56,773 nucleotides of DNA from the sequence record SRR2962707_1170. One strand, given 5' to 3'. Below, one piece after another: positions 313 through 14,245 of this stretch (the first letter of the stretch is position 1; each line of letters begins with the position of its first letter). Made by a program: the position numbers and the translations under genes. A model generated the notes under the pieces. That model worked only from the letters and a program-made list of their open reading frames with translations, was not told the origin of the DNA and searched no databases.

Positions 313-2268
313 TCAATCTCCTGCCGCGCGGCCTTTGAGGGCAACGATGCCTTTGGGCCGGAACTGGATAAAGAGGATGATGAACAGGATCATATAGGTC
401 TGGGCGGCCAATGTGTTGGACGGGTTCAGCCATTCGATGCCTTTTTGCAGCGTGCCGATCATTGTTGCACCGGCCAAGGTGCCCCAGACATTACCGACAC
501 CGCCGACAACTACGGTCATGAAGCTTTGTACGATGTAGTCTGCGCCCATTTCCGAGGTGACCTTGGCGTAGAGGCCAATGGCGACGCCGGCGATCCCTGC
601 GATGCCGGAACCGAGGCCAAAGGTCATCATGTTGATACGGTCTGGATTGATGCCCATGGAGGCGGCCATTCCGGGGTTTTGGGTTACCGCGCGCACTTCA
701 AGGCCAAGTCGCGTGCGTTTCAGGATAAAGAGGATCAGGGCCAGGAAGATCAGAGCGAGGAAGAAGATCGCGATGCGGATGTAGCTGATGGAAACAACAT
801 CGTTGATGATCCAGGCACCATCCAGCCAGCCGGGAGAGGTCAACGGGCGGGCCTGTGTGCCGAAGATGTTCTTTGCCAATTGCTGAAGCGCGATAGAGAT
901 ACCAAAGGTGGCGAGCAGGGTTTCAAGCGGCCGGTGGTACAGGTGACGGATCACCAGTCGTTCCATGGCAACGCCCGCGCCAAAGGTGATCGCGAAGGCC
1001 AGCGGCAAGGCCACCAGAATGGAAATCGTGTAATCCGGGATGAACTGTTGCACGACGTAGCCGGTATAAGCGCCCATCATGATGAATTCCCCGTGGGCCA
1101 TGTTGATAACCCCCATCACACCAAAGGTAATGGCCAGCCCGATGGCGGCAAGGAAGTAGATGGAGGCGAGGGACAAGGCGTCGAGCGCGAAGTCACCGGC
1201 CTGGTTAAAGGCAACCCGTTGTTCGATTTTATCCAGCGCCGCGCGGGCGGCGGTGGTGACATCTGCATTGGGTTCGTCATAAGCAAGGAAGAAAACATGG
1301 CCGTTGATGGACGCGGTTTGCTCTGCCGGGGAAACACGTGCCGGTACAAGGGCGTCGGCTGCGAGTTTATCGTAAGCCTCTAAGCGCTTTATACTGTCGC
1401 TGAGCTGCCCAACCGGGACACCGGCGACGGTGCTGCCGTCGACATTGTTGCCGAGGCGGGTTTTTATCTCGGCTTCTAGCACAAGGGCTGGCGCCAGACC
1501 GGCATCAACCAAAATCGCGTAAGCCTCGTCGTTGGAGAGATCGGTGCCGGGAGACAGAACTTGTGCGATATTAAGGTTTTCGGGCAATTGCGGCGCGACA
1601 CCTGCTGTCGTGGTCAGCAATTGGTTCATGATCGCACGGATGTCGAGGGACAGGCCCGTGCTCAGAGTATCGATCGCGGCAATACGTTCTTGAGTATCGC
1701 TGGAAAAGCGGGCGGTCAGCAGGCCGGCCAAGCGGGCCTTTCGTTCGCGAAGGGCGGGGTCCGGGTCATTGTCGATGGCGGCGCGCAGCGGTTCCAGTTG
1801 CTCGGGCAGAGGGTTTTGCGCAATGGCATCTACTGCGGCGGAACGGCGGGCGATGTCGGGATCGGACAGCTGAAACTGCACAAGGGCGGCGCCCAGCAAT
1901 TTACGTACACCGCCGTTTGGTTTGATCTGCTTGGCTTCTTTGGGGCCCACGATGGCAACAGTTTCACCTGTTGCGATGTCAAAAAGCTCTAAGCCCTCTG
2001 CATTGGGTTGTCCGAAAAAGAACAGATCATCACTTGCGCGTTTGTAGACCTCTTTGGCCTGCCAGCGTTCCAGGAACGCCGCGACACCAGGTAAGCCGGA
2101 ATTGGCCAAATCATCGAGCACGATGCTCACCGATTTGCGGCCAGGTTTGGCGACTTCGGCTTGGTGGGTCTGGAGGATCGCTTGAAGCTCACTTTGTTGC
2201 GCTTGGGCGGAAAGCCCTGGCAGCAAAAAGCAGAGCGCAAAGGCGAGGAGGAACGCGCGCAGCATCAT
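313..2268 (-). CDS. urtB: Urea ABC transporter permease UrtB with large periplasmic N-terminal domain
   Basis: Signal peptide; C-terminal LivH-type permease (GLAITFGVMGVINMAHGEFIMMGAY ... FIQFRPKGI); lies downstream of urtA. Confidence 0.93.
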   Translation of the reverse strand: MMLRAFLLAFALCFLLPGLSAQAQQSELQAILQTHQAEVAKPGRKSVSIVLDDLANSGLPGVAAFLERWQAKEVYKRASDDLFFFGQPNAEGLELFDIATGETVAIVGPKEAKQIKPNGGVRKLLGAALVQFQLSDPDIARRSAAVDAIAQNPLPEQLEPLRAAIDNDPDPALRERKARLAGLLTARFSSDTQERIAAIDTLSTGLSLDIRAIMNQLLTTTAGVAPQLPENLNIAQVLSPGTDLSNDEAYAILVDAGLAPALVLEAEIKTRLGNNVDGSTVAGVPVGQLSDSIKRLEAYDKLAADALVPARVSPAEQTASINGHVFFLAYDEPNADVTTAARAALDKIEQRVAFNQAGDFALDALSLASIYFLAAIGLAITFGVMGVINMAHGEFIMMGAYTGYVVQQFIPDYTISILVALPLAFAITFGAGVAMERLVIRHLYHRPLETLLATFGISIALQQLAKNIFGTQARPLTSPGWLDGAWIINDVVSISYIRIAIFFLALIFLALILFILKRTRLGLEVRAVTQNPGMAASMGINPDRINMMTFGLGSGIAGIAGVAIGLYAKVTSEMGADYIVQSFMTVVVGGVGNVWGTLAGATMIGTLQKGIEWLNPSNTLAAQTYMILFIILFIQFRPKGIVALKGRAAGD

Positions 2269-2303
2269 TATGGCCTTTGGGAAAGGGGTGTTTCGAAAAG
2301 GAT

Positions 2304-2332
2304 CCGGGCGCGGTGGGAGGCCCCGCGCCCGG
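2304..2332 (-). terminator. GC-rich stem-loop between urtA and urtB (terminator or mRNA-stabilising hairpin)
   Basis: CCGGGCGCGG (2304-2313) and CCGCGCCCGG (2323-2332) form a perfect 10-bp inverted repeat just after the urtA stop. Confidence 0.6.
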
Positions 2333-2349
2333 GTTCTTATGAGGTCAGA

Positions 2350-3633
2350 TTAGTAGTTCGATTTAATCTGAACGCAGGTGCTTGTTGCTGTGTTGTACAT
2401 GCCGCAACCAAGGTCTTTCCAGTCGGACTTCAAAACAGCCGACTCTGGCAGGAAGTCTGTCCATGCATCGCCTGCGACTTCGGTCGTTTGGCTGATGATG
2501 TCGAATTGACCGTCAGCTTGGATTTCACCGATCAGAACTGGTTTCGCCAAGTGATGGTTTGGCAGCATAACCGCTGTACCACCTGTCAGGTTTGGATATT
2601 CCTGACCGTACATTGCTGTGCGAACGGCGTCGACGTCTGTGGTGCCAGCGGTTGTTGCCGCGTTAACCCACATGTTGAAGCCGATGAAGTGCGCTTCCAT
2701 TGGATCGTTTGTCACACGCTCTTCGCCCATGCGGGCTTTCCAAGCTGTAACCCAATCGGCGTTCACAGGTGCGTCCGCAGATTGGAAGTAGTTCCAAGCG
2801 GCCAGGTGGCCAACAAGGTTGGATGTGTCCAGACCGGACAGTTCTTCTTCACCAACCGAGAAGGCAACCACTGGGATATCGTCAGCAGAGATACCGGCGG
2901 CAGCCAATTCTTTGTAGAAGCCGATGTTTGCGTCACCGTTGATTGTCGAAATAACGCCAACCTGTTTGCCGTCTGCGCCCAGTGCGACAACGTCAGAAAC
3001 GATTGTTGCCCAGTCAGAATGGCCGAAAGGTGTGTAGTTTACGAAGATATCTTCAGCTGGAATGCCTTTAGACTTCAGGTAGCTTTCCAGAATGTTGTTT
3101 GTTGTACGTGGGTATACGTAGTCGGTGCCGAGCAATGCGAACTTTTCTACACCAAGCTCTTCCAGGAAGTAGTCAGTTGCTGGGATCGCCTGCTGGTTCG
3201 GAGCCGCACCTGTGTAGAAGACGTTTTTGGAGCTTTCTTCGCCTTCATACTGAACTGGGTAGAACAGCAGACCGTTCAGTTCTTCGATAACCGGCAGAAC
3301 CGACTTACGAGAAACCGAAGTCCAGTTGCCGAACATGACGTCGACTTCGTGAACTGTCAGAAGTTCACGTGCTTTTTCAGCAAAAAGAGGCCAGTCGGAC
3401 GCAGGGTCAACGACGACGGCTTCCAATTCACAGCCCAACAGGCCGCCTTTGGCATTTTGCTGCTCGATCAGCATCAACATGGTGTCTTTCAGAGTTGTTT
3501 CTGAAATGGCCATGGTGCCGGAAAGTGAGTGTAGAACGCCCACTTTGATCGGGCAGTCCGCTGCAGCGGCAATACCTGTCCCTGCGAGCAGGGCGAGTGT
3601 TGACGTAGCAATCAGAGATTTGAACGATTTCAT
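2350..3633 (-). CDS. urtA: Urea ABC transporter substrate-binding protein UrtA
   Basis: IKVGVLHSLSGTMAISE, VVDPASDWPLFAEKA, WTSVSRKSVLP, FYPVQYEGEESS and GAAPNQQAIPA are hallmark UrtA/FmdD segments; signal peptide present. Confidence 0.95.
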   Translation of the reverse strand: MKSFKSLIATSTLALLAGTGIAAAADCPIKVGVLHSLSGTMAISETTLKDTMLMLIEQQNAKGGLLGCELEAVVVDPASDWPLFAEKARELLTVHEVDVMFGNWTSVSRKSVLPVIEELNGLLFYPVQYEGEESSKNVFYTGAAPNQQAIPATDYFLEELGVEKFALLGTDYVYPRTTNNILESYLKSKGIPAEDIFVNYTPFGHSDWATIVSDVVALGADGKQVGVISTINGDANIGFYKELAAAGISADDIPVVAFSVGEEELSGLDTSNLVGHLAAWNYFQSADAPVNADWVTAWKARMGEERVTNDPMEAHFIGFNMWVNAATTAGTTDVDAVRTAMYGQEYPNLTGGTAVMLPNHHLAKPVLIGEIQADGQFDIISQTTEVAGDAWTDFLPESAVLKSDWKDLGCGMYNTATSTCVQIKSNY

Positions 3634-3882
3634 AAGACTTGTGTCCCCAAGGTTACGCCACGAAATACGGCACGCCCGCCCCCTTCAAATAGGGAGTCCG
3701 GAGTGCTACGTATGAAATTCGCAGCAGTTCTGTTGCAGTCGTGCAAAGGGTAGAATCTGCCAGGATGTCCCCTTTGCGCGGCATAATATGCGGAGACGTT
3801 CCTCCCCGCGCTGTCGGGAATATCGTTCTGAGCGGAAACCAGCGAGAGATTCCCTATGAATCCCGTGGTGACGCGGAAGCAT

Positions 3883-3929
3883 TGATTTATTTTTGAGCGC
3901 GCGCGGAAAATGTGCTCAAAAAAAGTGCA
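3883..3929. promoter_or_regulatory. Tandem NtrC-like binding sites upstream of urtA
   Basis: TGCTC-AAAAAAA-GTGCA (3913-3929) fits TGCAC-N7-GTGCA. A weaker site TGATT-TATTTTT-GAGCG (3883-3899) sits 30 bp away. Nitrogen control of urea uptake is expected. Confidence 0.6.
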
Positions 3930-4055
3930 CCATATGTTTCGATTTCTTTGTGCAACATCGAAAGTGACTAGAAATGAGCATGTCAGAGTCCAGCTGTATG
4001 CCGATTGTGCGAAGTTGAGACGGTATTCATGATCTGAAGGCACCGGACGCTTTTA

Positions 4056-5657
4056 TCAGATAAGGTCGCGCACGTTTCGAAGCATCCCGACGGTTCTGAG
4101 GGTTCTGACAGGGTACAGCTCATCATTCACAAATCGGTCCAACGAAAAACCTGGTTCAATCTTTTCGAGTTTTTTGGCTGTTGCTTGGGCTTTGTCCATT
4201 TCGCCTTGTTGGGCGTATAAGGCGAGCAAGTGTCGATGAGCCGGGCGCAGGAACGGCGCAGCTCTGGCGGCGGCCTCGCCTGCAGCAATGGCCTCAACGG
4301 GGCGATTACAGGCAATGTTCACGACGCAATTGTTTACTTCCCACCATTGGCGGAAAGGGGAGAACCGCGCGATGTTACGGGCGAGGTTCGAGTTCTTAAG
4401 CGCTTCTGTATAGTCACCCCTTCGCATCTGAGCTGTCGCCAGCGCGTTCCAGGCAAAGGCATTCGCCGGGTTTTGTGCCACCGCTTGTTCGGCCAATTCC
4501 CAGCCACCTTCTGCGTCGCCCAACCCCATAACACGGACCTGACTGATCAGGGCCTGCGCCAAAGTATTGTCCACCGCGCTTTCCATTGCCGCTTGATTGA
4601 GCTCCGCGGCTTCATCGCGCAGGGCTTCGGGATTGTCGGAATGCAGTTCGATAAGCTGAATCATCCGCGCCAAACTGCGCCAAGCGAGGTAGACCGGGTT
4701 TGGGTCACATTCATGGGCTTGTTTCAAGAGCCCGTTGGCTTCGTTCAGTGAAGACGGATCAAAACTGAACATGCGGTATAGCGCCAACCGCGACAAAGCC
4801 GTGGCCCGGGCCTCGGGACGGCAATTCTCAATCACTAAAGGAATTTTGCTCAGGACCCGGTCGGCAACGTCAAACACCATGGCGGCGGTTGGTTCTGCCG
4901 ACTTCAATATGTCGTCATGTGCCTCAATCTCATGAATGCGGGAATGCATTATTCGGCCGGTCGGCAAATGTGACACTTTCAGAAAGACATTGGCCTTGCC
5001 GTCGCTGTCGATCAGGTTGCAGCAAATTTCGATGTCTTCCGTTTGTTTAGATGTTGGCTCTGTCGACGTTCCAGTGCTGCGCCACGCGCGTACATGTTCC
5101 GCTACGTTTTGACCAATTTGGTTGGCCAGAATGTCCCCCAGCAGTGCAGAGGTTTCACTTTCGTGGACTTTGGTGACGCAGCGAATATCTAATCCGGTGA
5201 TTTCGCGGGGGCGGGCAGACTCCAGCCGTTTTTGAAATCGGGATCTTTCTGATCGGAGCCATTCTTCGAATTCGGGATCACGCACATCCATACCTTCGAG
5301 AAGCTCCAGAGGCTCGTCGGAAGCAAAATCGCCCTGAAGCACATCTACAATGACCTGCTTGGGATCAAGTGAGATCGAGTTACGGTCGCCTGACAGAATG
5401 TTCTCATAAACAGGGGCCGTTTTTCTGATTTTGGCGAGCGCCTGTCGCAAATTTGCTCCGGCGTGTTCGGGGCCGAACCGGCTCCAGAGCTTGTCTTCGA
5501 TCCAGCGGCGGGATCGGTGCATGCCGGGACTTAAGGCCAAAAGCGCAAGCAGTGCTTGGTTTTTTGTCCCAACAGGGGTCACGTCTGTCCCGTCATTTGC
5601 AAACGAAGAAAATGAGCCAATCAAATTGATGTGCAATAGATTATCATCGTTGCTCAT
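4056..5657 (-). CDS. SARP/AfsR-like winged-helix transcriptional regulator with C-terminal TPR repeats
   Basis: N-terminal KNQALLALLALSPGMHRSRRWIEDKLW...ANLRQALAKIRK (OmpR/SARP wHTH) and LLEGMDVRDPEFEEWLRSER; C-terminal TPR-like helices (AEQAVAQNPANAFAWNALA). ATG 5657 preferred over TTG 5690. Confidence 0.8.
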   Translation of the reverse strand: MSNDDNLLHINLIGSFSSFANDGTDVTPVGTKNQALLALLALSPGMHRSRRWIEDKLWSRFGPEHAGANLRQALAKIRKTAPVYENILSGDRNSISLDPKQVIVDVLQGDFASDEPLELLEGMDVRDPEFEEWLRSERSRFQKRLESARPREITGLDIRCVTKVHESETSALLGDILANQIGQNVAEHVRAWRSTGTSTEPTSKQTEDIEICCNLIDSDGKANVFLKVSHLPTGRIMHSRIHEIEAHDDILKSAEPTAAMVFDVADRVLSKIPLVIENCRPEARATALSRLALYRMFSFDPSSLNEANGLLKQAHECDPNPVYLAWRSLARMIQLIELHSDNPEALRDEAAELNQAAMESAVDNTLAQALISQVRVMGLGDAEGGWELAEQAVAQNPANAFAWNALATAQMRRGDYTEALKNSNLARNIARFSPFRQWWEVNNCVVNIACNRPVEAIAAGEAAARAAPFLRPAHRHLLALYAQQGEMDKAQATAKKLEKIEPGFSLDRFVNDELYPVRTLRTVGMLRNVRDLI

Positions 5658-5721
5658 ACGGCCGGTTCCAAAAAACTGAATGTCGGTCAAAGACTAGCAT
5701 CGACTTTTGATTGCGGCAAAC

Positions 5722-5740
5722 TGCGTGAATTTTGCGTAAA
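5722..5740 (+). promoter_or_regulatory. 11-bp-period direct repeat TGCGT(G/A)AA x2 in the regulator/PAP2 divergent promoter
   Basis: TGCGTGAA-ttt-TGCGTAAA; the same core occurs three times at 9205-9231. Confidence 0.4.
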
Positions 5741-5823
5741 ATCGTCAAGACGAATGAAATTGGGTTTTGACCTTGTCTCTACCTAACGTCACCTTAGTGT
5801 TAAATCAAATTTTTGGAGGATGC

Positions 5824-6927
5824 ATGCCACGTTTGGGAGTTGAGGGTGTTGAAGGTGTTGAGGGCGTAGAGGGTGTTGAGGGCGTAGAGGGCGTTGAAGG
5901 CGTCGAGGGTGTCGAAGGCGTAGAGGGAGTTGAAGGCGTCGAAGGTGGACGAGGCGCTTCAGGACTTTTGTCGAGCGCCCTTGGACGGGCCCGCGATGGC
6001 ACCGCACGTTATTGGGACGGATCCGCATCCCGTATTCCAAACAGCACAGGGCGTTCCAGCTGGGATGCTTTCCGCAAACTCGCTCCAAAACCACGCATGG
6101 CGACGACCGATCAAACGGTTCAGGGGTGGTTCAACGTTGCTTTGAACAGTTCGTCTGCGGCTAACACCGAAGGTCAGTTGGTACTTGGCTCAAATGCTGT
6201 CGTCAGCCTGCGCAAGCCGTCTGATGCCTTCCTTGCAGAAAAACAATTGGCGTATCTGCGCAGTGCCGCGGATTTGCGCATGGACCGCCTTGCCGAAATT
6301 CGTGTGCAAACTGGAAATATTCTGTCCTTCTTTTCGACGGTCGGACATATGTCCCGGCAGGCTACTCCCTGGAGTTTGGCGGTGGCCTATGCCGTGTTGC
6401 GCTTGTGTCGGCATGTTGAAATGCCGTTCAAGTTGGGTTTTGACGTTGCCCGTCCGATCGCCATGTCGTTTGAAGTACAGCCGATCATTCAGACGCCGGG
6501 CCATGGGGCTTGGCCCAGTGGACATGCGACAGAGTCCTTTGCTTTGGCGACGGTTTTGACCCGGTTGTTTGGTCAGGATAGCTTTGATGCGCAGCAGGCG
6601 GTGACAGAACAAAACGAATTGATGCGCCATGCCGCACGCATCGCCATGAACAGAACCGTGGCCGGGGTGCATTTCCCAACAGACAGCATGGCTGGTGCGG
6701 TGCTTGGGCTGACATTAGGCGAGGCGTTGGTCCGGGTGCTTGATGGCGAAGATACGACCCCATCGAGAACCTATTTTGGGGACAGCTATGACGGCGACTT
6801 TAATCTGTCTTTATTTGGCGCGGCGCTAAGCGATGCTTCTATTATCGAAACGCGTCCCGTTGGCATGCAGATCGACGTGCCGGATTGGCTGCGTCGAATG
6901 TGGGATGAAGCCAAGCGCGAATGGTAA
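5824..6927 (+). CDS. PAP2/vanadium-haloperoxidase-fold protein with N-terminal (GVE)12 repeat
   Basis: GGAGGA RBS at 5815-5820 before ATG 5824. All three phosphate/vanadate-binding motifs are present: KLGFDVARP (KxxxxxxRP), WPSGH, and NRTVAGVHFPTD (RxxxxxHxxxD). Confidence 0.85.
   Translation: MPRLGVEGVEGVEGVEGVEGVEGVEGVEGVEGVEGVEGVEGGRGASGLLSSALGRARDGTARYWDGSASRIPNSTGRSSWDAFRKLAPKPRMATTDQTVQGWFNVALNSSSAANTEGQLVLGSNAVVSLRKPSDAFLAEKQLAYLRSAADLRMDRLAEIRVQTGNILSFFSTVGHMSRQATPWSLAVAYAVLRLCRHVEMPFKLGFDVARPIAMSFEVQPIIQTPGHGAWPSGHATESFALATVLTRLFGQDSFDAQQAVTEQNELMRHAARIAMNRTVAGVHFPTDSMAGAVLGLTLGEALVRVLDGEDTTPSRTYFGDSYDGDFNLSLFGAALSDASIIETRPVGMQIDVPDWLRRMWDEAKREW
5836..5943 (+). repeat. 12 x 9-bp coding tandem repeat (Gly-Val-Glu), synonymously diverged
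   Basis: Units gga-gtt-gag, ggt-gtt-gaa, ggc-gta-gag, ggc-gtc-gag and others vary only at third codon positions. Confidence 0.95.
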
Positions 6928-6981
6928 TTTTTGGTTTGTAAGAGCAGGCCCGTCTTTCCCCAGCCTGCGAGTTGTGAGTAC

Positions 6982-7012
6982 GCGGAGCGCATTAAGTGCG
7001 CTCCGCTTTTTT
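6982..7012 (+). terminator. Rho-independent terminator between the converging PAP2 and S8 genes
   Basis: GCGGAGCGCA-ttaag-TGCGCTCCGC followed by TTTTTT. Confidence 0.8.
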
Positions 7013-7013
7013 C

Positions 7014-9062
7014 TTAAGCGCGGCGTTTTCGGGTTCCGTTACCTGGGGTTCCGTTACCTGGGGAAAGGGTGATGTGGCCAAGCCTTGATTGCATGTCGTT
7101 GGGAACAGCCGTCCAGTGCAGTTTTGTATCGTCCAGATCGTCGACATGGGCAGGACCGTTCGTCTTGATCTTAGAGTGAGACAACGCCAAAAAACGTGTC
7201 AGCCGGGCGGCGGAAGCTGAAGTTCCGTTGATGGGCCGGATCGACCCTGTGTAGGTGCCACTTGCCAAGACGCCTCTGAGCGCGGACCCGTCCTCGGCCA
7301 CTGAAGAAAGTGTTGGACCTGCCACGCTCCAGTCGCTGCCCTCTGACGTGTAATAGGCCGGAGACACTTTGCGCCCTCCGTTGGACAGGCGGGTCGCCCC
7401 GACGGTGAACACCTGCCGGGATGTCGCTGTTGTCAGGGCAGTGTGCGTGCCGGTCCTCTTGATAGAGGAATTTTGGGCCAAACCTGTATTGTCCAGCATG
7501 TCGCCGTCCCATGCCCAGGCCTGAGGGGAATCGAAATAGGATTGCCGTCCCCGCTGGCGGAACTCAGGCAAGCTGTCTCCCCTTTGGATTTGCAGTGTGA
7601 CGCTAACCGGTGATCCGGACTTCGACTTGGTTGATATCGTCCATTTGCCCGAATTGGCTTGGGGCGCGCCGGCAGCGAGGTCGCCTGTCGCACAAAGCGC
7701 AATAGCGTAATAGGGTTTTGCGACGGTTGTCGCGTCCAAATTGCGTTCAGGTACATGATACAGTCGAGCTACCGGACCAATGTCCGACACCAATGTCCTA
7801 ACGCTGCCTTCGGGGATACTGTCGAAGCCTGAGGAATATCCATTCGGATCCGCCAAAGAGATGTCAAAATCAGCGGTGCTTTGTGCGCTTCGAAGCTCCA
7901 CATAGCTTGGCGTAAGATCATCAGGTTGAGCGCGCCAGTCAATGCTTGCGGTATCCACCTGTTCTGACATTTTCAGTTGCGCCACTTGGCGGGACCGTCT
8001 GTTGTTGCCAAAGGCCCAAACAATGCGGACGGGTTGTCCCGTCAGGGTTTGCCAAGCCTCCGCTTCCTTTGTGATTTGGTATTCGGCAAAGCGTGTGCCG
8101 TCTTTGGGGCCTGCCAACATACCGAGGCTGATGTTGACGACCACAGCGCTGGATGGATCAATTGTGCGGGCCTGCTGCAAAATCCAACGGAGGCCCTGAA
8201 CGAGGTAGTTTTCGAACTGCGTTCCTGAGGTGTCCTCTACAGCCATCGCAGGAAGCTGAACCGCCAACAATGGCCAGTTCCGGGTTGGGTCTTTTGTGTC
8301 CAGCGGGTCTGCCCCGCCGGCAATGTCCAGGATGGAGGTTCCGTGACTCGCCGAGAACTCAACAGAGCGATGATCGGTTACACCGCTCAACGAATTGTTT
8401 AGCCCATTATAAAGTGCGCTTTCGTCAATAGTTGGCGTGCGTATCATCCGATTAATGTCTGAATGGGACAAGATGGTGCCGGATTGCACTGTTTTGTCAT
8501 TGTTGCCGGTTAACGTTTCTTGGGCTTGGAGCCACACGGCATGAAACCGCGAGCTGTTCTTTCCGTTTTTGAGATTCTGACGCCGGAACCTGGCGTTCAG
8601 GAAGCCGATGCCATCGTCGATTACCGCGACGATTGGTTGTCCCTTGGCCCATTCAGGGACAGACGGGGATGATTGTTCGGTATCACTGTTCCTATGGGGT
8701 GATGCAATCGGCGAGGCAGGGCCAACGTCAATGACGTCAAATAGATGCGCGTGGTCCGAATACGGGGTACCTAATTTTCGATAGGCAAAATACTCATCTG
8801 GCAAATCCAAAGCATCAGCCGCGTTCTCAATCCGGGCGACAAGATCGGAGTAGTCTTGCTCGGGCATCAGGTAGTCAGATTGGGTGTCTTCAATCAGTTG
8901 CCGTAATTGTTGTCGTGCTGTTGACCTGTCGAGGCCTTTAAGACGCAAGAAAATTGCCTCGAATTTTGGGGTTTCTGTTGGTCGTGAGTCCGTTAAACGG
9001 CCCCAATCAAGGTATGGATCCCAGAATTCCATGGGGCGCGGTGCAGTCCAAGCCAAAGCCAA
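7014..9062 (-). CDS. S8 (subtilisin-like) serine peptidase, no signal peptide, large insertion in the catalytic domain
   Basis: Asp motif IVAVIDDGI, His motif SHGTSILDIAGG, oxyanion Asn WAFGN, Ser motif NGTSASA. AGGAGG precedes TTG 9062. Confidence 0.8.
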   Translation of the reverse strand: MALAWTAPRPMEFWDPYLDWGRLTDSRPTETPKFEAIFLRLKGLDRSTARQQLRQLIEDTQSDYLMPEQDYSDLVARIENAADALDLPDEYFAYRKLGTPYSDHAHLFDVIDVGPASPIASPHRNSDTEQSSPSVPEWAKGQPIVAVIDDGIGFLNARFRRQNLKNGKNSSRFHAVWLQAQETLTGNNDKTVQSGTILSHSDINRMIRTPTIDESALYNGLNNSLSGVTDHRSVEFSASHGTSILDIAGGADPLDTKDPTRNWPLLAVQLPAMAVEDTSGTQFENYLVQGLRWILQQARTIDPSSAVVVNISLGMLAGPKDGTRFAEYQITKEAEAWQTLTGQPVRIVWAFGNNRRSRQVAQLKMSEQVDTASIDWRAQPDDLTPSYVELRSAQSTADFDISLADPNGYSSGFDSIPEGSVRTLVSDIGPVARLYHVPERNLDATTVAKPYYAIALCATGDLAAGAPQANSGKWTISTKSKSGSPVSVTLQIQRGDSLPEFRQRGRQSYFDSPQAWAWDGDMLDNTGLAQNSSIKRTGTHTALTTATSRQVFTVGATRLSNGGRKVSPAYYTSEGSDWSVAGPTLSSVAEDGSALRGVLASGTYTGSIRPINGTSASAARLTRFLALSHSKIKTNGPAHVDDLDDTKLHWTAVPNDMQSRLGHITLSPGNGTPGNGTRKRRA

Positions 9063-9347: not shown

Positions 9348-10562
9348 ATGGCAAAAATTTCTGATCCAGCGATGACGTATATGTGCGCCGATGAAGGTAA
9401 AATTGTTTACTTGCCCAAGACTGCTGTGCGGCGCGATGGTGCGAGCTGCGCAATGGATGCCCAAACTGCAAAGATGACCGCTGGCCTTGCGGAAATGTAT
9501 TTGTCCGGGGTGTTGAGTGACACGCCGATTTCGGTCGTTACTGGTCGGTTCATGAAGGATCAGGAAGTTACTCTGGAGCACCTTTTTGAACAGGTTTCCC
9601 GCGTGTCGCAACTTTGCTCGGTTGACGTTTCTGCCGCGGACGATTTCAAGGAACGCGCGTTATCGGGTCCGCTTAGTGGTGAGACCTCTTTGCGCAGACG
9701 GGCGCTAGTGGCCCGGCATGCCGGATTTTTCTCAAAAAACGCGGATCAGATTACACCCAAATTCGTTGTCGACAAAGCTCGCACATTAACGCCCGGTGCC
9801 CCTATGCTTGTCCTGCTCGACACGTTGCTGAGCAAAGGCGTTCCCTTTAATCCGGAATTTGAAAATTATTTGAGCAAAGGGCTCATCCAAGGCTCAATGC
9901 GGAAGCTTATTCACGTGACAAAAATGAAGATGTTGCGAGTTGCGCGCTCCCGGCGCAAGTCGATGCGGCCAAGTGTTTTTGCCTCCTTGGTCGCTATGCA
10001 AGAGTGCAATCAGGCGGAAATGGTTTGTCCTGCGAATATTGATGTTTCGGCGGGCCTTGAATGCCTAAAGACCTTCGCTCCCGATGTTTTGGCCAGTGTC
10101 GCAGAATGGAACCGAGTGAACGGCGCTGCAGGCCAGACGCTTTGGTCCGCAGAAGGGCATGCCCAGATCGGGTGGAGCCCCTTTGAAATGGAGGCCAATT
10201 ATATGTTGCCCCGAAAACCAGAGTTAAGCCTTCAAGGGGCGCAGGACGCCCAATTGGCCCACGCAGCTGTGGCCTCCGCTTGTGCCACCTTTATTTCGTT
10301 CATTTTTGACACCAGCGTTGAAGTCACTGATTTCGGGGCCTTTGGTTTCAATGGATCTACTGATGATCTATTAGTTGGAACGTTAGAAGTTGCCAGAATG
10401 GTGCAATCAACAGAAGCCCGTTTCTACCCCCATGAAATTGAAATGGATTTTCAGTTGGGTCAAGATCTCGCGTTGTCCGTTCTGAGCCAGGCAATCCTGT
10501 CACCCTTGGTTGCGGCCAATCAATGTAGACCCAATTTGGATGTCGATCTGGCGACGGCTTGA
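9348..10562 (+). CDS. Divergent vanadium-dependent haloperoxidase-like protein, probably catalytically inactive
   Basis: AGLAEMYLSGVLSDTP, RRKSMRPSVFASLV, LAHAAVASACATFISFIFD and FQLGQDLALSVLSQ follow the order of VBPO segments (AEMxExYxMALLRDVP, HRRLRPE, SGHATVAGACVTILKAFFD, LGExIAIxILxE). The PSGH and RxxxGxH motifs are eroded. Confidence 0.55.
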   Translation: MAKISDPAMTYMCADEGKIVYLPKTAVRRDGASCAMDAQTAKMTAGLAEMYLSGVLSDTPISVVTGRFMKDQEVTLEHLFEQVSRVSQLCSVDVSAADDFKERALSGPLSGETSLRRRALVARHAGFFSKNADQITPKFVVDKARTLTPGAPMLVLLDTLLSKGVPFNPEFENYLSKGLIQGSMRKLIHVTKMKMLRVARSRRKSMRPSVFASLVAMQECNQAEMVCPANIDVSAGLECLKTFAPDVLASVAEWNRVNGAAGQTLWSAEGHAQIGWSPFEMEANYMLPRKPELSLQGAQDAQLAHAAVASACATFISFIFDTSVEVTDFGAFGFNGSTDDLLVGTLEVARMVQSTEARFYPHEIEMDFQLGQDLALSVLSQAILSPLVAANQCRPNLDVDLATA

Positions 10563-13612: not shown

Positions 13613-14245
13613 ATGACAGGTTCGATTATTACGATCGCGCAGCAAAAGGGCGGATCTGGAAAGACCACTGTTGCGGCAAATCTAGCTATTGGGTTTCGTC
13701 AAATGGGCAAACGGGTGGCGTTGATTGATACCGATCCTCAAGGCAGTTTGGGGCGTTGGTTCATGTCTCGTATGCAACGGGATGAAACCTTGGTTGACGG
13801 TATGGATTTTTCAACGTCTTCGGCGTGGGGGATCACATATGAGTGTCGTAAACTTTGCGAAAACAATGACTTTGTCATTATTGATACCCCGCCCAAAGCG
13901 GATAGCGATCTGCGCCCGGCGCTAAGGGCCGCAGACTTGGTGGTTGTTCCGGTTTCGATGAGCCATGTTGACCTTTGGGCGACCGAAGGGGTGCTGGACT
14001 TGGCGCGTCGTGAGAATAAGCCCGTGATGGTCGTGATGAACCGGACTCGTCCGGGCACACGACTGTCCCGCGATATTGCCGAAGCGATGCAAGAGATCGA
14101 TGCAGAATTGGCCGAAGCTCAGTTGGGAAACCGGGTGGTTTATGCCGAAGCGCTGGGGCAGGGACTTGGCGCCAGTGAAGGTCCGCGCAGCCGCGCCAAA
14201 GATGAAGTCGCGGCACTGACAGCAGAGGTGGCGCATCGCGTCTAA
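13613..14245 (+). CDS. parA: Short orphan ParA/MinD-family ATPase
   Basis: Deviant Walker A QKGGSGKTT, IDTDPQGS and IIDTPP; 210 aa; no parB in the window. Confidence 0.88.
   Translation: MTGSIITIAQQKGGSGKTTVAANLAIGFRQMGKRVALIDTDPQGSLGRWFMSRMQRDETLVDGMDFSTSSAWGITYECRKLCENNDFVIIDTPPKADSDLRPALRAADLVVVPVSMSHVDLWATEGVLDLARRENKPVMVVMNRTRPGTRLSRDIAEAMQEIDAELAEAQLGNRVVYAEALGQGLGASEGPRSRAKDEVAALTAEVAHRV

Follow-up and report, generated by a model that had tools for sequence, protein, structure and literature searches.

A perfect tandem peptide repeat at the N-terminus of a PAP2-type enzyme in a three-gene cassette of Rhodobacterales

A PAP2-type enzyme that begins with twelve exact copies of one tripeptide raises a simple question: is the repeat a feature of the protein or an accident of the DNA, and, if the former, what might it be for? 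The gene lies at positions 5824-6927 (plus strand; 367 amino acids, aa, plus stop) of a 56,773-nucleotide stretch from sequence record SRR2962707_1170, hereafter the window. Its ATG at 5824 opens the residues MPRL, which are followed by twelve nine-base units (5836-5943), each encoding Gly-Val-Glu (GVE), and then by GGRGAS. A reading of the window's letters without database searches (the sequence-only reading) had proposed that the repeat is kept at the protein level, and had suggested a collagen-like or polyglycine-II structure, a metal-binding polyanion or a repeated protease site. From the comparison with relatives reported here, we regard as secure that the tail is translated, disordered (by structure prediction) and selected at the protein level, and that it is carried by a PAP2-fold enzyme in a conserved cassette, which also encodes an S8 subtilase and a regulator.

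The GVE array and its reading frame

The twelve units of the array (plus strand, residues 5-40, net charge -12) are identical in protein and scrambled in DNA. Gly is encoded by GGC (six times), GGT (four) and GGA (two), Val by GTT (six), GTA and GTC (three each), and Glu by GAG (seven) and GAA (five), with all 72 first and second codon positions invariant. Nine of the twelve units are distinct at the DNA level and differ synonymously only, as expected if the repeat is kept as protein. Linking the nine types takes at least 8 base changes, every one of them synonymous, which has P ~2e-5 to 6e-5 if ~26-30% of random single-base changes are assumed to be synonymous. Tandem Repeats Finder delimits the array to 5835-5947, with periods of 9 (77% matches) and 18 (83%), and it is the sole sizeable tandem array across the 56.8-kb window.

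Note that codon scrambling alone cannot assign the strand. A minus-strand open reading frame (ORF) of 65 aa (5805-6002) reads (PST)12 across the array, and since it shares its third codon positions with the GVE frame, this shadow frame looks equally "selected". The plus frame is chosen because the third base of the Glu codons is only A or G, because the frame runs into PAP2, and because the array is in the PAP2 frame in all 78 readable related loci described below. The step from wobble scrambling to purifying selection, as taken in the sequence-only reading, thus overlooked the strand, and it gains its support from the unchanged arrays of relatives.

Translation starts upstream of the repeat, as had been supposed. 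In the window, a GGAGG Shine-Dalgarno-like site (5815-5819, plus strand, by direct reading) stands 4 nt upstream of the ATG, and 75 of 79 loci, window included, have an ATG at a distance of 1-11 codons upstream of the array, mostly with a GGAG/GAGG-type site in front of it. The pre-repeat MPRL (5824-5835, plus strand; start Met, small residue, x, hydrophobic residue) fits that of homologues, mostly Met, small residue, x and F/Y/L (MAIF, MPVY, MTIF, MSEY and others). A start downstream at MATTDQ (residue 92), considered in the sequence-only reading as the contrary case, is refuted, as it would remove conserved folded residues that lie between the array and this Met. A rule by which the array follows Met plus a multiple of three residues was dropped, the register of a repeat being arbitrary.

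Repeat tails across the family: diversity, stasis and re-coding

A protein search returned 297 relatives, the best with 69% identity over 74% of the query, mostly annotated "phosphatase PAP2 family protein" and from Rhodobacterales; odd N-terminal repeats are visible in called relatives, such as MGRMGRMG, (GGGAG)n, (AGSHGGGL)n and (GAFGSF)n. A scan of genomes in which each species was represented once gave 600 matching stretches, of which 553 could be confirmed; the best 80 were analysed, the PAP2 frame being followed upstream as far as the preceding stop. In 78 of these 80 loci, i.e. in every locus with an intact 5' end, a perfect tandem repeat of a short peptide occurs, unchanged in position and in frame with PAP2; the remaining two (L025 and L039) are cut at the 5' end of the contig. 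Orthologues without a repeat tail, which would have spoken against the protein-level proposal, are thus absent from the 78 readable loci. The same repeat is largely invisible in protein databases: by the criterion of our script (at least 3 copies) it is found in 7 of the 120 best database homologues versus 78 of 78 readable loci. Many database proteins of the family have their start 3' of where the array lies (MARDGT is one such start), and truncated gene calls probably explain why the tail went unnoticed.

The unit differs widely between loci, which come from many marine bacteria. Its period ranges from 2 to 5 residues, and the units comprise AYD, GHE, GGQ, GHQ, NHQ, NSQ, GNQ, GVQ, GAQ, GTQ, GSQ, PQG, GGK, AGK, AGR, NGR, GRS, GKS, GKM, GRM, GGH, GHH, HHS, AGH, NAE, NAQ, NTS, GYS, AGY, GGF, NVG, GGE, SGD, SGA, SGV, QG, GGGA, GGGF, GRGQ, GKGQ, GGSH, GGNA, GGPG, GNGT and GGGAG. 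Eleven genomes carry two copies, and the repeat is present in all 22 of their loci (some of which repeat earlier loci), adding GGI, GGV, GHT, NAY, SAY, GS, TGPG, GQM, QHG and GGAH. The two cassettes of one genome carry different units in 11 of 11 genomes, for instance GRM with AGY, GGF with NAE, or GS with SAY. The nearest relative (L002, 65% identity) has (GHE)14. No second GVE-tailed orthologue was found among the relatives read or in a metagenome scan for (GGNGTNGAR)4: at least 120 loci match, and of the 120 listed none codes for a protein related to the enzyme, to the S8 or to the regulator. Four GGN-GTN-GAR units in a row are in themselves common in metagenomic DNA (at least 120 loci).

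Further details of the arrays were observed in subsets of relatives. One subfamily with aromatic units (AGY, GGF, NAY, SAY, NSF) has xPE before the array and SP..AL almost directly after it. In L004-L009, L012 and L014, an isolated extra unit occurs three residues past the array (AAE-NSQ, STE-NHQ, STE-GHQ), and this unit varies together with the array unit among Mameliella, Sagittula marina and Sagittula sp. In two genomes, G002 (NSQ) and G003 (GHE), a search for three tandem units gave no match outside the enzyme gene, and the idea of matching repeats in a partner protein, in the manner of amyloid signalling, was rejected on this confinement.

This diversity bears directly on two of the structures suggested for the tail. 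A collagen-like or polyglycine-II stalk would account for Gly at every third residue in the window, a Gly-X-Y periodicity shared with bacterial collagen-like proteins (Scl, Lcl; PF01391), and Pfam Collagen does match with E 7.8e-6, along with weak NCBIfam collagen-adhesin matches. However, the Pfam score of 26.0 bits lies below the cut-off of 27.2, as the NCBIfam scores do below theirs, the array holds no Pro, the protein appears cytoplasmic, the model described below gives the tail no structure, and relatives use Gly-free units (NHQ, the sister of GHQ; NSQ, AYD, NAE, NTS, HHS) and periods of 2, 4 and 5. A metal-binding polyanion would fit the acidic tail of the window, but among 72 proteins the tail is neutral in 47, basic in 20 and acidic in only 5. 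Neither suggestion survives as an account of the family, and we consider a stalk or polyanion very unlikely.

Within-array variation in the 78 loci is entirely synonymous, including Ser TCN/AGY and Arg CGN/AGR switches. As the arrays were defined as perfect in amino acids, the informative tests are comparisons between relatives. Between L061 and L070, 95 core residues differ, compared with none of 22 array residues and 13 of 22 array codons; between L022 and L024, 107 core residues differ, compared with none of 20 array residues and 17 of 20 array codons. The core difference in these two pairs is 27-32%, and pairs with 46-55% core difference (L026/L028, L041/L067, L068/L075) still retain their unit (GGK, AGK, NGR). 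Synonymous change in arrays proceeds at or above the core rate; in Tropicimonas sister species, which have a common scrambled pattern and so point to stable inheritance of the arrays, 3 of 42 array codons differ, equal to the synonymous rate of the core. On a quick maximum-likelihood tree with SH-aLRT support only, sister lineages differ by one unit residue throughout the array (GHQ/NHQ, GVQ/GAQ, GGQ/GAQ, GKM/GRM, GHH/SHH, GTQ/GSQ). The absence of array change, together with these sister-unit differences, indicates long stasis under purifying selection stronger than that on the enzyme, interrupted by whole-array re-coding.

Is the array nevertheless a functionless or DNA-level feature, that is a slippage microsatellite, a contingency locus or a neutral low-complexity spacer? 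Copy number does shift slightly among close relatives (8 versus 9 in Mameliella; 20 versus 26 aa in PQG arrays), and the Tandem Repeats Finder score for period 18, slightly above that for period 9, suggests past two-unit duplications. Against this, the units of the window are mostly distinct in DNA, all periods are multiples of 3 nt and keep the frame, non-synonymous change is absent while synonymous change is not slowed, and the scrambled pattern common to the Tropicimonas sisters is stably inherited. We therefore rejected the contingency locus and the microsatellite, the latter in agreement with the sequence-only reading, and regard any such DNA-level origin of the tail as hardly tenable.

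What is conserved in the arrays, besides perfection, is their extent. The distance from Met to the position of L53 has a median of 51 aa (interquartile range 46-55.5, range 39-76) and the array a median length of 27 aa, with a median copy number that falls as the period rises (~18, 9 and 8 for periods 2, 3 and 4). Array length is thus constrained, with residues conserved and not copy number.

The enzyme and charge compensation

The enzyme passes the PAP2 gathering threshold of Pfam (PF01569, 48.6 bits versus 27.2, E 9e-13, residues 183-305). Its catalytic domain (6370-6738, plus strand) contains K203-x6-R210-P211, P231-S-G-H234 and R277-x5-H283-x3-D287; the PAP2 motifs read KX6RP, PSGH and (S)RX5HX3D. 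In 72 enzyme sequences K203, R210, S232, H234, N276, R277, H283 and D287 are invariant and P211, P231 and G233 at least 90% conserved, with Asn (N276) in place of the Ser that usually precedes R277. An AlphaFold2 (AF2) model from the 72-sequence alignment reaches a mean predicted local distance difference test score (pLDDT) of 90. In Foldseek its best matches are the class A acid phosphatases 7f17/7f18 (E 3e-6, target template-modelling score, TM, 0.66), followed by PhoC, PhoN, LpxE and 4usz, so that sequence and fold liken the enzyme to class A non-specific acid phosphatases, LpxE and vanadium haloperoxidases, whose three catalytic motifs it shares. It differs from the acid phosphatases and haloperoxidases in having no signal peptide or membrane helix by hydropathy and in adding a helix and beta subdomain (residues 47-133), a family-specific DLRxDRxxEIxxQ segment and the repeat tail. 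No 19-residue window in the enzyme, the S8 or the regulator reaches the hydropathy value usual for a membrane helix, and all three therefore appear cytoplasmic, as judged from hydropathy windows rather than a signal-peptide predictor.

In the model, residues 1-39 have pLDDT <50 and the GVE tail is predicted to be intrinsically disordered; the fold begins at the conserved helix GLLSSALGRARDGT (5962-6003, plus strand, residues 47-60, pLDDT ~95). Between the two lies the linker GGRGAS (5944-5961, plus strand, residues 41-46), which corresponds in alignments to HAGGxxS, the junction motif found in most relatives: after the array these read HAGGxxSxLLxxALxxxRDGxxGxW, and the window reads GGRGASGLLSSALGRARDGTARYW, with L53, G59 and W64 nearly invariant.

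The charge of the array is compensated within its own protein. Array charge correlates negatively with that of the rest of the protein (Spearman -0.52, n=72), also by independent contrasts on a quick tree with midpoint rooting (r -0.55, p 7e-7, slope -0.69); among the 46 contrasts differing in tail charge, 32 are of opposite and 13 of same sign. Two segments carry this compensation. The linker is the first (independent-contrast r -0.76, p 9e-15), linkers being rich in Asp/Glu after basic arrays and in Arg after acidic ones. The second is the segment of residues 147-186 (6262-6381, plus strand; sliding-window Spearman -0.68, independent-contrast r -0.66, p 3e-10), in which the variable positions 153, 160, 164, 165, 177, 178 and 182 are charged opposite to the array and lie among the invariant residues of the motif DLRxDRxxEIxxQ..SFF, with 178, 164, 177, 182 and 153 the strongest compensating columns. 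The rest of the core shows no significant relation (r -0.17, p 0.15). No complementarity of tail charge was seen with the S8 or the regulator, either over whole proteins (rho +0.21 and +0.24, respectively) or in 40-residue windows, none of which exceeds |rho| 0.38 (at most 0.36 in the regulator). From these correlations we infer that the tail may contact the linker and a putative surface patch at 147-186 of its own enzyme.

Such a contact could also be made between molecules and without any protease. Tails would then zip or phase-separate with tails, linkers and patches of other copies, storing the enzyme, and identical units would provide self-specific multivalency. This overlaps with the reading we favour below. 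The low-complexity motifs of phase-separating proteins and silks appear to resemble units of the family (GGX, QG, GRGQ, GYS, NSF, GGGF), the charge is blocky, with a basic array before an acidic linker and vice versa, and array length is conserved around its median of 27 aa. Yet (GVE)12, at -12, would be expected to be self-repelling in the absence of basic partners to pair with, and the conserved S8 would be left without a role; we hold homotypic assembly to be unlikely.

The cassette and the candidate roles of the tail

When the neighbours of the enzyme gene in the window were searched by tblastn in the 80 related loci, the S8 peptidase and the regulator were each found in 73, which makes the S8 gene, named as a neighbour in the sequence-only reading, a conserved partner. 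The other four neighbours (a 404-aa ORF, a DUF4864 protein, a pectate-lyase-like protein and UrtA) were found in none of the 80, and all-against-all clustering of ORFs over 81 loci gave no fourth conserved family, the next largest occurring in 13 loci. In the clade of the window the S8 gene is convergent with the enzyme gene, and a strong hairpin of 11 pairs (8 G-C) with a T-run at 6982-7006 between them is likely a shared terminator; in the other large clade and in Phaeobacter the S8 gene follows the enzyme gene immediately and in the same orientation, an arrangement seen in roughly half of the loci. The regulator is transcribed divergently, and the intergenic region 5691-5823 presumably holds a divergent promoter, although no sigma-70 consensus or direct-repeat operator was found in 5640-5835. 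Two further ORFs lie near the cassette: the 404-aa ORF (9348-10562, plus strand), which adjoins the S8 gene and has no Pfam, NCBIfam or PADLOC match, and a 210-aa ORF (13613-14245, plus strand), a few kb away, with a ParA/MinD-like N-terminus (KGGSGKTT) noticed by eye in the ORF list.

The S8 subtilase (7014-9062, minus strand, 682 aa) consists of a prodomain-like region (1-120), a linker (121-143) and a protease domain with the triad D149, H240 and S615 and a beta-rich insert (~360-530), the N-terminal domain and the beta strands being seen in an AF2 model of pLDDT 93.5. It scores above the Pfam S8 cut-off (43.9 bits versus 21.8), and in 70 sequences D149 and H240 are invariant and N353 (oxyanion Asn) and S615 at least 90% conserved. 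Its profile matches CspB, CspA and CspC (E 6e-25 to 1e-8), which also take ranks 1-10 in Foldseek (CspB 4i0w, E 1e-20, TM 0.68). At its C-terminal end (7031-7063), a perfect 15-nt tandem duplication of 2.2 copies encodes PGNGTPGNGT before the stop; it is identical in DNA, unlike the GVE array, and thus probably reflects recent slippage.

The clostridial germination protease CspB removes the N-terminal pro-peptide of pro-SleC, and the closest relatives of the S8, its prodomain-like N-terminus and its beta-rich insert suggest by analogy that it could likewise remove the tail, as a dedicated subtilase acting on the N-terminal pro-region of a partner enzyme. The setting differs in that the host is a Gram-negative, non-sporulating member of the Rhodobacterales, the partner has a PAP2 fold and is not a cortex lytic enzyme, the parts are apparently cytoplasmic, the pro-region is a perfect, hypervariable repeat and the cleavage is putative. 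Combining this parallel with the charge data, we tentatively favour, as quite possible although short of probable, a regulatory pro-tail: it would touch the enzyme that bears it, and the co-encoded subtilase would take it off. The enzyme would be the cargo of a three-gene cassette of a SARP-like (Streptomyces antibiotic regulatory protein) winged helix-turn-helix (wHTH) and tetratricopeptide repeat (TPR) regulator, the tailed enzyme and the Csp-like S8. The tail would lie on, or bridge to, the 147-186 patch, within or between molecules, and this contact would keep the enzyme latent or assembled. The S8 would release the tail by a cut at the junction, which is conserved (as HAGGxxS in most relatives; GGRGAS in the window), and the regulator would control the divergent promoter. 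The segments NxSxGxxAGPKDG and GN of the S8, which by subtilisin we take to line the binding cleft, are nearly invariant while the repeat unit varies, which would be easier to reconcile with a single conserved cut site than with cutting within units.

Several points weigh against a removable pro-tail. Cutting of the tail by the S8 is putative only, and the HAGG junction is not kept in the subclade of the window (GGRGAS, SRAPSG, GGAPSG). A pro-peptide needs no perfectly identical units, so that unit identity and whole-array switches are left unexplained and would be better accounted for by a set of identical products or by a code that is read in register. The charge balance could reflect selection on net charge or solubility, although its restriction to two segments argues otherwise. 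Finally, the divergence of the regulator between relatives with different units, detailed below, hints at a partner other than the S8. Direct comparison of the S8 with the enzyme adds little: by eye, no motif common to the S8 prodomain linker and the enzyme junction was seen, and a complex prediction of S8 residues 133-682 with the whole tailed enzyme, made with alignments unused, gave 0.02 and 0.09 versus a mark of 0.34 and is evidence neither way. The S8 columns 238, 609 and 620, near the catalytic residues, were rejected as a charge complement of the tail, their Arg states being clade-wide, and Glu at S8 position 157 in 10 of 18 basic-tail cassettes is a weak lead.

If the tail is cut, could the pieces be the product? 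A repeated protease site is at most conceivable. The tail may also be read as a multi-copy peptide precursor, its identical cores fused to an enzyme or scaffold domain and cut by the S8 into di- to pentapeptides or released as a whole polymer that serves as product or signal. Precedents exist in borosins, in which a peptide is fused to an enzyme domain, and in the repeat peptides of fungal Kex2-processed precursors. As in such precursors of peptides made by the ribosome and modified after translation (cyanobactins with PatA/PatG, borosins, Kex2-processed peptides), a hypervariable repeated peptide has conserved flanks and a subtilase nearby, adjoining the tailed gene in 73 of 80 loci; the units stay exactly identical over long divergence with scrambled codons and no residue change, and the whole-array switches resemble a change of product. 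However, the array is N-terminal and its units, of 2 to 5 residues across the family, abut without spacers, recognition sequences or recognisable cut sites, the presumed cleft segments of the S8, as judged by subtilisin, are nearly invariant while units vary, residue length is conserved instead of copy number, and compensation of charge by the protein's own linker and patch would be unexpected. There is no conserved transporter or exporter nearby, nor a heterocyclase, methyltransferase, oxidase or other modifying enzyme. We give a peptide precursor a slim chance. Its cyanobactin form, based on a likeness of GVE to G(L/V)E(A/P)S, which the sequence-only reading gave as the recognition motif of PatA and which we presume to be so, can be set aside for the family, as the unit is hypervariable, no other cyanobactin gene is conserved nearby, and the S8 is Csp-like (E 6e-25; Foldseek 1e-20), PatA-type chains (4h6v, 3zxx, 4h6w) matching at E 3e-5 to 3e-4 and over the C-terminal 60 residues only.

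The regulator (4056-5690, minus strand, 544 aa) has a predicted N-terminal AfsR/SARP-like winged helix, a poorly conserved middle and C-terminal TPRs. Its family profile matches TPR proteins in the PDB and the AfsR wHTH at E 2e-4, and the single sequence matches TPR only in Pfam, with no BTAD or Trans_reg_C at E 0.01. By profile it resembles SARP/AfsR regulators with a TPR sensor in its winged helix, its TPRs and its divergence from the presumed target, and differs from them in having no NB-ARC/ATPase module. Relative to the core, the regulator has diverged slightly more in 10 sister pairs with different units than in 7 pairs with the same unit (ratio 1.15 versus 1.00, Mann-Whitney p 0.033), most strongly in residues 201-330 (p 0.025), whereas the S8/core ratio does not differ (1.20 versus 1.12, p 0.77); these p-values are uncorrected for about 11 tests.

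This divergence is what one would expect if the tail, attached or released, bound the TPR superhelix of the regulator, the unit acting as a specificity code that ties transcription to the state of the enzyme, in the manner of a partner switch or of an intracellular peptide signal. The TPRs are related to peptide-binding TPRs such as those of OGT, 73 of 80 loci have the regulator, long stasis broken by an occasional switch is what recognition codes typically show, and all eleven two-cassette genomes carry different units. On the other side, the samples behind the uncorrected p-values are small, charge complementarity between tail and regulator is absent, the units are so diverse that paralogues would be expected to differ by chance, and a regulator encoded divergently can act without touching the product of its target; we think binding to the regulator unlikely. 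More broadly, the tail may be a natural specificity code read in register either by the TPR superhelix or by the patch and linker of a sister enzyme, with the S8 freeing or destroying the tail, a proposal that we consider doubtful.

The distribution of the cassette bears on a last possibility. Among 301 genomes sampled from the order to which Mameliella belongs, 90 contain the family at E <= 1e-30, although roughly the ten weakest matches span the PAP2 core only; 13 of the 90 genomes have 2-3 family matches. It occurs also in 34 plasmid records, among them Phaeobacter gallaeciensis DSM 26640 pGal_C110 (L105) and P. inhibens P66 pP66_c (L106), at locus positions 1680-7341. Both Phaeobacter plasmid cassettes have their three genes in one orientation, encode a longer wHTH protein (~687 aa) and carry an (NSF)6 tail. 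Patchy distribution, plasmids, paralogues, a context not conserved beyond the three genes and a hypervariable tail would suit a defence-type module in which the tail is bait for a foreign protease, its fast-evolving decoy sites being cleaved to unleash a PAP2 effector under maturation and control by the S8 and the regulator. Yet PADLOC gives 0 hits for enzyme and regulator and only a marginal IetS match for the S8 (E 0.0038, 13.4 bits), the PAP2 tree largely follows taxonomy, and the unit is static over 27-55% core divergence, contrary to an arms race. We lend the bait little credence.

Each gene of the cassette belongs to a known superfamily (PAP2, S8, wHTH-TPR), but no family or defence-system model in Pfam, NCBIfam or PADLOC-DB describes the cassette or the tail, nor did a full-text literature search, whose reach leaves out most subscription journals, find a publication on either. 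To our knowledge, no known system has a perfect, codon-scrambled, lineage-specific repeat that exceeds its enzyme in conservation and changes its unit throughout the array, and we therefore rate the tail as new as a feature. It marks an apparently undescribed three-gene cassette that is also present on plasmids of the model roseobacters P. inhibens and P. gallaeciensis. A periodic peptide of almost any composition that is more conserved than its enzyme, yet re-coded whole, represents an unusual mode of protein evolution, which calls for a mechanism such as recognition in register or identical products. If the tails are pro-peptides, the cassette would be a Csp-type zymogen system outside spore-formers. 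If they are a specificity code, each lineage and each paralogous cassette would run a private, orthogonal intracellular peptide-recognition circuit in Proteobacteria, its unit fixed for long periods and occasionally re-coded array-wide together with its reader, and such orthogonal pairs would supply short repeat tags together with their readers, ready for use.

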